A stretch of DNA of 64,000 nucleotides from a virus (IMGVR_UViG_3300029288_000059:97237-161236), one strand, 5' to 3'; positions 26,191-29,238 are shown, counted from the first letter of the stretch. Notes: a model not told the origin generated them from the sequence alone. Made by a program: numbers and translations.

Positions 26191-26617
26191 TATGATTGAA
26201 ATCCATACAGATGGTGCTTGTAGTGGTAATCCAGGACCGGGTGGTTGGGGTGCTATTATTGTTTATCCAACTGAAAAAGTTGAATTAAAAGGTGGTGAAC
26301 CACATACTACCAATCAACGAATGGAGTTAATGGGTGTTATTAAGTCATTAGAGACAATTACTGAACCAAATGACATTATAATCCATACGGATTCACAATA
26401 TGTCCAAAAAGGATTTATGGAATGGTTATCTAATTGGATTAAGAATGGTTGGGTTAATAGTAATAAGAAACCAGTCGCTAATAAGGACTTATGGTTAGCA
26501 TTAATTAACGCTAGTAAAATTCATCATGTTAAGATTGTATGGGTTAAGGGACATAACGGTAATGAGATGAATGAACGAGTTAATACTTTAGCTCAACATG
26601 AGAGTAAGCATAATTAG
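26180..26617 (+). CDS. rnhA: Ribonuclease HI
   Basis: TDGACSGNPGPGGW, TTNQRMEL, TDSQY, NKDLW, WVKGHNG..NE. Confidence 0.95.
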   Translation: MESDMIEIHTDGACSGNPGPGGWGAIIVYPTEKVELKGGEPHTTNQRMELMGVIKSLETITEPNDIIIHTDSQYVQKGFMEWLSNWIKNGWVNSNKKPVANKDLWLALINASKIHHVKIVWVKGHNGNEMNERVNTLAQHESKHN

Positions 26618-27051
26618 TTCCTGTATATTACCATTTCCATTTCCTTTTCATTTTTTATTATGTATGATGTTTCATTGAATTGTGATGAGAATATTTTACG
26701 ATATTCTCTATATTTTGGTGAGAACCATATATTATAACGTGGAATGATATATCTATACCAAACATAGTCTAAAACGTTATTAGCATCGTATGATAGTTCA
26801 TTCGGTTCTGTTATCTCAATAATCCCATTAGTTTTCAATATTCGTTTAAATTCTAGTACCAACGCCCCTAAGTCTTGCACGTGATGAATTACGTTTTGGC
26901 ATTTGATACAATCGACAGATGAATCGTTTATTCCAATAATTCTATTTTGTTCTATGTCATAAAGATAATCAAGTGTGAACGTCGGTTCAATATCACAGGT
27001 GAAATATCCATCTGTTGGTGAATAGCCGGAGCCAAAATCTAACTTAAACAT
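26614..27051 (-). CDS. Class I SAM-dependent methyltransferase (Methyltransf_11-like)
   Basis: LDFGSG motif I, VIHHV, EFKRILKTNG. Confidence 0.8.
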   Translation of the reverse strand: MFKLDFGSGYSPTDGYFTCDIEPTFTLDYLYDIEQNRIIGINDSSVDCIKCQNVIHHVQDLGALVLEFKRILKTNGIIEITEPNELSYDANNVLDYVWYRYIIPRYNIWFSPKYREYRKIFSSQFNETSYIIKNEKEMEMVIYRN

Positions 27052-27758
27052 AGATGACCCTTCCCGTTAATAACATCATTAAACTCTAATGTGCTTGTAC
27101 TATTGGGCAGAATAATAAGGTTGTCATGTGTATTATCGTGGTGGAATGACCAAAAATTAAAATTATTACGAGTAAGAGTGAATACATTGTAGTTTTGATG
27201 TTGTTCTATACTATATGGTTCATCTATTATTTTTGAGAATATAGAAGTCTCTATTGGAATATCTTTCATATCTTCACAAAACGTTAATCCTATATTATTA
27301 GAACTAGCATATTTTATAATATCATAGTATGTACTGAAATTGCCAATTCTTGACATAAAAACATTTAATCGTACATTACAATGATTTTGTAACTCTTTAA
27401 TTTTAAAAAGAATATTATGGTTTTTGAAGTTTGGCATACTTATATTAATATTTGTAATACCGGCATTAATACAATCATTGTAAAATGAAATATCACCTTT
27501 GCCATTAGTCGTAAGGTTGTATTGTTGTGCTTTATTTAATGGTATAATTGTATTTAATAGTTCAATGGTTTTGGTGGGATAATCGGACAACTCACCACCC
27601 ATGAATGTCATATACTCTACATCAGGAACATTACTTAGTGCCAATAAGGCATTAGAAGGGGTTAAGAATACCCCTTCTTTATGTTTTTGATAACAGAATG
27701 GACAATTAGAATTACATTTGTATGTTCCAATTATCCTTATACCTGTTATATTAGCCAT
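27039..27758 (-). CDS. Radical SAM enzyme (start MANITG)
   Basis: CNSNCPFC cluster motif, FMGGE, LTTNG, INIS; ATG overlaps the stop of the upstream 46-aa ORF. Confidence 0.85.
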   Translation of the reverse strand: MANITGIRIIGTYKCNSNCPFCYQKHKEGVFLTPSNALLALSNVPDVEYMTFMGGELSDYPTKTIELLNTIIPLNKAQQYNLTTNGKGDISFYNDCINAGITNINISMPNFKNHNILFKIKELQNHCNVRLNVFMSRIGNFSTYYDIIKYASSNNIGLTFCEDMKDIPIETSIFSKIIDEPYSIEQHQNYNVFTLTRNNFNFWSFHHDNTHDNLIILPNSTSTLEFNDVINGKGHLCLS

Positions 27759-27891
27759 CGCTGTCTTCATCATGAATAAGTGACATTTGCCCACACGCTG
27801 CATTAGCTTGTATTTCTGCTTCGGTTGCAATGGCAATAGCACAATCAAATCCAACATCTTCAACGGTTTTAAGTAATTCTTCTTTAGTCAT
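27751..27891 (-). CDS. 46-aa ORF MTKEELLKTVEDVGFDCAIAIATEAEIQANAACGQMSLIHDEDSDG, resembling the RlmN/Cfr C-terminal catalytic segment
   Basis: Translated by hand; AAGGAG RBS; NAACGQM matches the RlmN/Cfr DIxAACGQL motif; below the ORF-track length cutoff. Confidence 0.8.
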   Translation of the reverse strand: MTKEELLKTVEDVGFDCAIAIATEAEIQANAACGQMSLIHDEDSDG

Positions 27892-27903
27892 TTATATTAC
27901 TCC

Positions 27904-28767
27904 TTATATGTTGTTCTTATAATGGAACAACGTTTTAATCCCCGATTCGTCCGAACTAACGTTTTCATTAATTGGGGATATCTTAATGAAGACTGTATCT
28001 TTATCGAACTGAGTAAGTAAGTCACTTGGTACAAACGGGGTATTTTCCGATAGTGCAAAGTTTAAAGTTACTTTCCATGGTCGATTAGGAATACTATTGT
28101 AATAGTATTTGATAAGTTCACCAAGTTCTTTATTATCAATTACTAATTTATTTTGAAGCCATTTACGATAACTATTATCTGAGCTATGGATTGAAAACTG
28201 TAACTCGAGCCAATCTTTACCGTATATTAGTTCCAACTTCATTAACTTATTAACGAGTTTATACGATTGACTTATACCAATGGTCGATATTTGAATTCTT
28301 GCCATTGGGTACTTATCTTTAATTAATCTAATACCGTCAATGACGTTATCGATATTTAGACTTGGTTCGCCCATACGAGTAAAGAGTACTCTGAATATTT
28401 CAGAATCATTAGGTGATTTAACCTTATTAGTAATAGTCAAAGTATGTTTAATGGCCATTTCAACTTGGTCAAATATTTCCTGACTAGTTAAGTTTCTAAA
28501 TCCTTGTTTTTCTGTTAGTTTATTAACGGCACAGAATTTACATTTTATTGGACAACCACTTTGAGTGGAAACGCCAATGCACCATTTTTCATTCCATAAA
28601 TCCATATCTTTAAGATTTATATCTGTCGCATTGTTTTGTTTGCCGGTTATTCGTATTTCGGTACTTTTTGGTAAACAGGTCGAAGTTGTTTCAATCTTCA
28701 TATTATCATGTAACAATACAACCCCTACCCAACCGTTTGTAAATTTTCTAATCTTTGATAATTTCAT
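27904..28767 (-). CDS. RlmN/Cfr-like radical SAM enzyme lacking the C-terminal AACGQL segment
   Basis: VSTQSGCPIKCKFCA, RNLTSQEIFDQV, RMGEP, ISTIG, FSIHS, ISPIN. Confidence 0.85.
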   Translation of the reverse strand: MKLSKIRKFTNGWVGVVLLHDNMKIETTSTCLPKSTEIRITGKQNNATDINLKDMDLWNEKWCIGVSTQSGCPIKCKFCAVNKLTEKQGFRNLTSQEIFDQVEMAIKHTLTITNKVKSPNDSEIFRVLFTRMGEPSLNIDNVIDGIRLIKDKYPMARIQISTIGISQSYKLVNKLMKLELIYGKDWLELQFSIHSSDNSYRKWLQNKLVIDNKELGELIKYYYNSIPNRPWKVTLNFALSENTPFVPSDLLTQFDKDTVFIKISPINENVSSDESGIKTLFHYKNNI

Positions 28768-28779
28768 GATAGAAAATCC

Positions 28780-29025
28780 TTATAATGAATACATTAATGT
28801 TTGTAATTGTTTTTTAAGTTGGGCGGTACATTTGACTTCTTCGAGTTCTACTAAAAAGCCATAAGTAAATGACCAAACTTTACAATCACATCCGCTTGCG
28901 TTGATTTGACCAATAAACATAACGGTACTATGTTTAACTACATAATAGTAACCGTCACATTTAAAGATACCATCTTTCTTAGTTTTAGCGTTCTCTATTA
29001 ACTTTTGTAATATATCTCTTTTCAT
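28780..29025 (-). CDS. Hypothetical early protein
   Basis: GAGG RBS and early promoter cassette 29025-29083. Confidence 0.6.
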   Translation of the reverse strand: MKRDILQKLIENAKTKKDGIFKCDGYYYVVKHSTVMFIGQINASGCDCKVWSFTYGFLVELEEVKCTAQLKKQLQTLMYSL

Positions 29026-29066
29026 AACTACCTCTATATGTTAATTTATAACTTTAATATAACATA
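29025..29066 (-). repeat. 42-bp promoter/RBS cassette, also at ~29992-30033
   Basis: TAACTACCTCTATATGTTAATTTATAACTTTAATATAACATA present at both loci. Confidence 0.85.
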
Positions 29067-29238
29067 AAACATACATACTGTCAAATGAAATAGTCATTAT
29101 TATGATTCACGAATGGCTATTTGATTGTCGAAACTTTTTCAATATTCAATAGAAAATTCAAATGCTTTATTTTTAGATACAATTACCATTTCAAAATCGT
29201 CCATAAATAATAAGATTTTTTTACGTTATTAAACTGGT

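Follow-up and report, generated by a model that had tools for sequence, protein, structure and literature searches.

RlmN and Cfr are textbook cases of methylation via a protein-bound methyl-cysteine, with a second cysteine releasing the product: in RlmN, Cys355 carries the methyl group, Cys118 is the resolving residue, and variants of Cys118 trap the covalent enzyme-substrate adduct. RlmN (3RFA, 4PL1, 5HR7, 6FZ6) is a dual C2-methyltransferase of 23S rRNA A2503 and tRNA A37, while Cfr (9P0P) is a C8-methyltransferase of 23S rRNA A2503. Here, we describe a locus in a 64,000-nucleotide (nt) stretch of viral DNA (IMGVR_UViG_3300029288_000059:97237-161236, hereafter the window, which belongs to the 289,811-bp viral record of a jumbo phage), in which an RlmN/Cfr-like radical S-adenosylmethionine (SAM) enzyme, the core, ends before the Cys loop, this loop being encoded by a separate small gene downstream. 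The safest conclusion from our analysis is that the two products form a genuine enzyme of two subunits that descends from the class A radical SAM methylases, with the Cys arm supplied in trans. A preliminary description had reported a 287-amino-acid (aa) open reading frame (ORF) with the RlmN/Cfr motifs in order and the final helix-strand-loop on a separate 46-aa ORF, and we confirm its coordinates and motifs. The pair and its junction are as follows:

27904-28767, minus strand: core subunit, RlmN/Cfr-like radical SAM barrel of 287 aa (matches to PF04055, TIGR00048 and RlmN structures in the PDB)
27892-27903, minus strand: 12-nt spacer GGAGTAATATAA, forming the AAGGAG ribosome-binding site together with the TAA of the core, with a second in-frame TAA inside
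27751-27891, minus strand: Cys-loop peptide of 46 aa with a helix, the strand FDCAIAIA, an AACGQM loop with Cys33 and an acidic tail, homologous to the last ~35 residues of RlmN

The core displays the motifs VSTQSGCPIKCKFC, which contains the cluster ligands Cys72, Cys76 and Cys79, then FRNLT, RMGEP, QISTIG, FSIHS and ISPINE in the RlmN order, and lacks both the N-terminal domain and the C-terminal Cys loop of RlmN. Among solved structures, RlmN is the top sequence match: a profile of 24 family members, across which the three cluster cysteines and RMGEP are invariant, ranks RlmN first in the PDB (6FZ6, 4PL1, 5HR6 and 3RF9, E about 1e-18 to 5e-19), and the same profile matches Cfr 9P0P with E 4e-15. 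As in RlmN, the CX3CX2C motif comes just after a VS(T/S)Q strand, the GEP, ST.G, S.H and IP.N motifs share the same order, and an AACGQ(L/M) Cys loop follows a helix and a strand. With Cfr, the family has in common the fold and, by homology, the class A methyl-Cys mechanism, and the differences are those seen with RlmN; we found no indication here of a Cfr-like role in antibiotic resistance.

Unlike RlmN, the Cys loop is located on a separate gene product, an invariant Gly replaces Cys118, the N-terminal domain of ~60-100 residues is absent, the tail after the Cys loop is acidic instead of basic, and the genes are linked to other SAM enzymes. The best family models are nevertheless those of RlmN and Cfr, with TIGR00048 at 9e-18 over residues 60-204 only and the NCBIfam CfrAB model at 4e-12, while Pfam recognizes only the general Radical_SAM family (PF04055, 1.8e-9, 38.4 bits vs. 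a cut-off of 29.5). The core falls below the curated family cut-offs, with scores of about a quarter of the threshold or less (TIGR00048, 64.3 vs. 290 bits; NF008396, 50 vs. 633; TIGR04432, 42.9 vs. 550). Its match to TIGR00048 begins at model position 103 of 355, the N-terminal accessory (RNA-binding) domain of RlmN being absent, and the ~60 residues before the barrel form a conserved hairpin specific to the family (F9, N11, G12, E26, T28, T30, P33). The net charge of the core ranges from -13 to +32 across the family, and the peptides are acidic.

The invariant residues of the peptide (G14, A18, A20, A22, T23, E26, A31, A32, C33, G34 and Q35) correspond to the terminal helix, strand and AACGQ loop of RlmN, and the window peptide ends with GFDCAIAIATEAEIQANAACGQM followed by the acidic tail (net charge -9). 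The core has no Cys beyond residue 79, so that the loop of the RlmN Cys355 type sits entirely on the 46-aa product, whose gene is present in a single copy in the 290-kb genome. At the junction, the core ends with ATA TAA, followed by GGA GTA ATA TAA and then by the ATG of the peptide, with both ORFs in frame and AAGGAG placed 8 nt 5′ of that ATG; the 12-nt in-frame gap, the two TAA stops and the ribosome-binding site had all been described before and are found on the sequence. The possibility that the stops are sequencing errors is contradicted by two contigs: one from a source-like run spans 26600-29054 with zero differences at a depth of ~29, and the other, 247 nt long and drawn from an independent wastewater run, covers the junction (27818-28063) without gaps and with a single difference. 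RNA-labelled runs contained only small shares of the stretch, as contigs, and provide no evidence of expression.

To determine how general the split is, we collected relatives from viral and genomic collections (140 loci, falling at 80% identity into 47 core clusters, hereafter lineages). The peptide is encoded by a separate gene in 125 of 129 related loci. Among viral loci, 82 of 85 have a peptide gene (80 as a separate same-strand ORF, one frameshifted and one reading AACGMM), as do 43 of the 44 full-length members recovered from 185,579 species genomes. Spacers between core and peptide range from 6 to 41 nt with all three frames represented, and some loci display intervening genes or carry the peptide gene upstream. 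Except in the Bacteroidetes type, every relative has a Shine-Dalgarno-like motif ahead of the peptide start, and the pooled ratio of nonsynonymous to synonymous polymorphism (pN/pS) of the peptide is 0.19, indicating purifying selection. The peptides were located by scripted motif scans; a tblastn search with the 46-aa peptide against the phage collection returned no matches, probably because the query is short and of low complexity. The preliminary description had argued, from the dedicated ribosome-binding site, for a natural split over a nonsense mutation, and the comparison with relatives bears this out. The family comprises 106 representative clusters at E 1e-30 or better, mostly viral, from phages of Proteobacteria, Bacteroidota and Firmicutes and from contigs binned with candidate-phyla bacteria and DPANN archaea.

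Eight cultured phages also possess full-length core relatives, and the Cys loop is a separate gene in every one examined. Carriers of the system include Pectobacterium phages Arno18, Arno162 and Wc4, Yersinia phage P778, Vibrio phage D479, Bacteroides phage “tikkala” and Moorella phage MTATph1. The peptide gene lies directly downstream of the core in D479, “tikkala” and MTATph1; in Wc4 and P778 the Cys loop is encoded one gene further on, inside longer proteins, and the intervening 91-aa gene has no relative in the window. In D479 the peptide gene (L001:4339-4560) consists of two tandem 32-aa Cys-loop modules, identical at 76 of 96 nt and 30 of 32 aa (20 nt changes for two aa changes), again indicating purifying selection. 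The deposited coding sequence of the D479 peptide starts further upstream and overlaps the core gene. Separately, homing-endonuclease genes (GIY-YIG, HNH) are inserted between core and peptide or are read as peptide fusions (L008:2568-3266, minus strand; P0327, P0343, P0346), and the core/peptide junction appears to be a hot spot for such insertions.

We modelled the complex of core, cluster, SAM and peptide, along with three control pairings. The preliminary description had named docking of the peptide into the barrel as a check, and the core-peptide model agrees, with an interface score (ipSAE) of 0.83 vs. 0.02 for the best of the three controls, a result that may mirror the known RlmN structures; in a benchmark, 58 of 80 solved complexes attained the mark for this score, against 2 of 110 mismatched pairs. 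Docking runs agreed in at least 76% of contacts, and the predicted local distance difference test score (pLDDT) of the partner was at least 63. In the model, peptide residues 15-18 pair with core residues 259-263 (VFIKI) as a strand aligning with the last barrel strand of RlmN, peptide residues 31-40 contact core residues 80-81, 84 and 132, which adjoin the cluster and SAM motifs, and the conserved N-terminal hairpin described above makes a further contact with the peptide. The model supports docking by strand addition, in which the peptide would provide the last strand and place its Cys loop at the cluster/SAM site.

The position of the resolving Cys, seven residues before the first cluster Cys, is occupied by Gly65, which aligns with RlmN Cys118 and is invariant in the family, so this feature of RlmN is absent. 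As previously noted, a Cys lies two residues earlier; as a substitute, however, this Cys63 fails, being M, T or C in relatives, and since it is not conserved it cannot be the resolving residue of the family. The only invariant Cys of the core are the three cluster ligands, and the peptide has a single conserved one, Cys33. A wider survey of the superfamily (the best 150 of 7,251 representatives) shows that a Cys at the 118 position is accompanied, in full-length members, by a fused GGGCGQL tail, while Gly-type family members are without a fused tail in all cases. A few fused relatives devoid of Cys118 exist, for instance P0148 and P0160, and P0342 (318 aa) is a verified core-peptide fusion that keeps Gly at this position. 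Unlike the split family, short fused RlmN-like phage proteins such as that of Stenotrophomonas phage BUCTxx99 (L097:2426-3385; ~300 aa, ~30% identity, without the long N-terminal domain) keep both catalytic Cys in one chain (TVICCSTQ and a fused GGGCGQLW tail). This BUCTxx99 ORF, located inside a tRNA gene cluster, is a short fused two-Cys RlmN-like protein annotated as “prohibitin family protein”, and the same annotation stands under a similar match in Xanthomonas phage JGB6.

In the window and in about a fifth of the lineages, the core-peptide pair is joined by two further genes:

27039-27761, minus strand: second radical SAM enzyme of 240 aa, with CX3CX2C (Cys16, Cys20, Cys23), an invariant Cys162 and a predicted MoaA/viperin-like fold
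26614-27051, minus strand: minimal class I SAM methyltransferase of 145 aa (DFGSG, RNVIHH; phrog_5399, 2.6e-27)

The first 11 nt of the second radical SAM gene lie within the end of the peptide gene, and its own last 13 nt are shared with the start of the methyltransferase gene. The predicted structure of the second radical SAM enzyme (pLDDT 80) matches MoaA 2FB2 in Foldseek (E 4e-8, TM-score 0.72) and viperin-like proteins (TM-score 0.6-0.69; 9DFN, 0.69), while its sequence scores lie far under the cut-offs (TIGR02666, 30 vs. 284 bits; viperin in the PDB, E 0.035). Pfam detects only PF04055, and the predicted fold displays no SPASM extension. Enzymes of the MoaA/viperin type act on nucleoside triphosphates. 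A word-based homologue search retrieved only one close match to this protein; tblastn against the collected loci uncovered its relatives. In one protein 94% identical to the translation of 27039-27761 (P0277), Phe replaces the first cluster Cys (KFNSNCPFC), reflecting a sequencing error or an inactive copy, and in the crAss-type enzymes (L026:4780-5547 and relatives) the cluster loop is lengthened by an 8-residue insert and reads CX11CX2C, not CX3CX2C.

The two accessory genes are present in 9 of the 47 lineages, never one without the other, and in at least four shuffled orders: core, peptide, second radical SAM, methyltransferase in the window and in L013; peptide, second radical SAM, core, methyltransferase in L016; core, second radical SAM, methyltransferase, peptide in crAss-like and Clostridia-associated loci; and core, peptide, methyltransferase, second radical SAM in L099 and L108. 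A megaphage locus (L094) has two copies of the second radical SAM gene together with a methyltransferase-peptide fusion. Searching with a profile for longer proteins bearing the peptide module, we found at least 17 protein clusters of methyltransferase-peptide fusions, which match the methyltransferase of the window down to E 1e-40, and three radical SAM-peptide fusions, in addition to the single verified core-peptide fusion. The module is fused at either end to unrelated partners, including methyltransferase, radical SAM, SPFH and M23 peptidase proteins, and two fusions contain strong internal ribosome-binding sites 5′ of the peptide Met. In an AlphaFold model of a methyltransferase-peptide fusion, residues 1-141, the methyltransferase, have pLDDT above 90 and the peptide part 45-66; Foldseek matched this model to generic class I methyltransferases only. 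The accessory genes were not found in five complete isolate genomes by a search that had no positive control, which is weak evidence of absence. In the 141-kb viral contig L093 (5470-7049), the system with a radical SAM-peptide fusion lies ~0.5 kb upstream of an RtcB RNA ligase gene that is called as two ORFs and thus may be split or interrupted.

A candidate promoter precedes these genes:

29056-29084, minus strand: sigma-70-type promoter-like site, TTGACA, 17 nt, TG-extended TATATT (consensus match only, 11/12)

A copy of this motif is found at 30051-30023; the two copies precede consecutive minus-strand genes and may represent an early promoter set. The 81-aa and 249-aa ORFs upstream have no relatives beside the system elsewhere. 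One relative of the system was placed in the early region of a lambdoid prophage. Genes of nicotinamide adenine dinucleotide (NAD+) salvage, NAMPT and/or NMNAT, occur within the flank in 9 of 47 lineages belonging to several separate clades; NAMPT and/or bifunctional NMNAT-Nudix (“NARP2”) neighbours stand on either side in L007, L008, L010-L013, L080, L094, L098, L110, L125, L132 and L138. The 290-kb record of the window has no match to the NAPRTase/NAMPT family, so that the NAD+-salvage link holds for relatives and not for the window genome. Two papers describing NAD+ pathways of phages mention no radical SAM neighbour, and our literature searches retrieved no description of this two-piece system.

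Based on these data, we propose a model in which the 287-aa core keeps the [4Fe-4S]/SAM barrel and the 46-aa peptide would give, in trans, the last β-strand and the AACGQ loop, with Cys33 matching RlmN Cys355. By homology, one SAM would methylate Cys33, and cleavage of a second would yield a 5′-deoxyadenosyl radical. Hydrogen abstraction from the S-methyl group by this radical would leave an S-CH2 radical, which would then add to an sp2 carbon in the target (an adenine, by analogy). Given the invariant Gly at the Cys118 position and the lack of any other conserved Cys, product release would have to use a different base or further enzymes. Because the accessory genes always occur together and are often fused to the peptide, we read the latter as a detachable Cys arm, a methyl or methylene carrier that may serve up to three SAM enzymes. 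That it is such a recycled subunit, shared among SAM enzymes, has in our view an even chance of being correct. We infer a role in host takeover or counter-defence from the early-type candidate promoter, the early prophage position and the frequent NAD+-salvage neighbours.

Several points weigh against a shared, recycled arm acting on nucleic acid. RlmN has been solved as one chain, and the docking result may thus reflect likeness to its structure. Catalytic turnover is an assumption here, as the resolving Cys is missing and RlmN enzymes altered at Cys118 stall at the adduct. A nucleic acid target is not assured either, considering that the core is devoid of the RNA-binding domain of RlmN, that its charge varies widely and that the peptides are acidic. 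The peptide part is unpacked in the fusion model, which therefore defines no contact between methyltransferase and peptide, and the isolate genomes provide weak evidence that the two-gene form works without the accessory pair. Finally, the conserved tandem duplication in D479 is no harder to explain for a consumable than for a 1:1 subunit.

The last point leads to the reading in which the peptide is consumed, with Cys33 remaining methylene-bridged to the target as an adduct, or with the peptide itself as the product, either a ribosomally synthesized and post-translationally modified peptide (RiPP) or a sacrificial donor; processing of the adduct would then fall to the two accessory enzymes. 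The trapping of the adduct by RlmN C118 variants makes the invariant Gly, in a system with no other conserved Cys in core or peptide, a natural argument for it, as are the D479 modules under selection, the fusions to many unrelated partners at both ends, and the predicted fold of the second radical SAM enzyme, which resembles that of enzymes acting on nucleoside triphosphates. The gene set is also RiPP-cluster-like, a small peptide with two radical SAM enzymes and a methyltransferase, and it shares with peptide-dependent radical SAM systems (RiPP maturases, and scaffold or carrier peptides such as PqqA/PqqE) a small conserved peptide next to one or two radical SAM enzymes and a methyltransferase, at times fused to tailoring enzymes. 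Unlike in RiPP systems, however, the peptide belongs to the fold of the enzyme itself and is not a leader-core substrate: its invariant residues are those that build the last strand and loop of RlmN, the model docks it as a part of the barrel, and the natural fusion P0342 argues for a subunit. Pfam finds no RRE or SPASM domain in either radical SAM protein, and no conserved protease or exporter was seen near the loci, whose neighbours were not annotated systematically; some of the odd fusions may be artefacts of gene calling or of homing endonucleases. On balance we consider consumption of the peptide rather unlikely, while taking it seriously. A particular form of it, in which the peptide is a sacrificial tag and its Cys33, on the free peptide or on proteins fused to it, becomes methylene-welded to an adenine of nucleic acid or of an NAD/ATP-type nucleotide, the adduct being remodelled by the MoaA/viperin-like enzyme and the mini methyltransferase, seems improbable to us; if true, it would represent a new peptide-nucleotide conjugation chemistry early in infection, perhaps directed against NAD+-depleting or nucleotide-signalling defences. 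The preliminary description had left the choice between a heterodimeric methyltransferase and a carrier or substrate peptide: docking supports an RlmN-like mode of binding, and peptide fusions and tandem duplication fit a portable carrier arm or a consumable.

The system could otherwise be an ordinary RNA methyltransferase of the RlmN/Cfr type, making m2A or m8A at rRNA A2503 or tRNA A37, and split without mechanistic consequence. RlmN and Cfr are indeed the closest families and structures, the source databases label relatives as 23S rRNA A2503 C2-methyltransferases, and phages do carry canonical short RlmN-like genes with both Cys, as in the BUCTxx99 tRNA cluster. Yet the score of 64 vs. 290 bits is far under the curated cut-off, the resolving Cys is missing across the family, the core has no RlmN N-terminal domain, the window contains no tRNA gene, and this reading leaves the association with the accessory pair and with NAD+-salvage genes unexplained; we hold it to be doubtful. 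Far less probable still is an artefact or a broken gene, whether by sequencing or assembly error, recent pseudogenization or read-through of the two TAA codons. In its favour one can cite the shared frame of the window ORFs and rare fused forms such as P0342. It is opposed by the variant-free contig and the independent one across the junction, by a split kept in ~125 loci with intervening genes and swapped orders, and by a peptide under purifying selection with its own ribosome-binding site. Read-through was rejected, as it cannot be the rule in a family with spacers in every frame.

The analysis thus brings to the RlmN/Cfr paradigm a family whose carrier Cys resides on a free peptide, severed from the barrel, and whose releasing Cys has been lost, which raises the question of how the adduct is resolved. 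It also provides a naturally detached carrier loop, open to labelling, swapping or titration independently of the barrel. New here are four elements: the two accessory genes always occur together, in shuffled orders; the methyltransferase is often fused to the peptide; the second radical SAM enzyme is predicted to fold like MoaA and viperin; and relatives are linked to genes of NAD+ salvage. The strict pairing of the accessory genes and the methyltransferase-peptide fusions suggest a multi-enzyme pathway built around one Cys arm, to which the recurrent position beside phage NAD+-salvage genes also points. As cultured phages carry the system, it is directly testable. Should phage DNA, host RNA or an adenine nucleotide of immunity prove to be the target, the family would represent a new type of chemistry for phage takeover or counter-defence.

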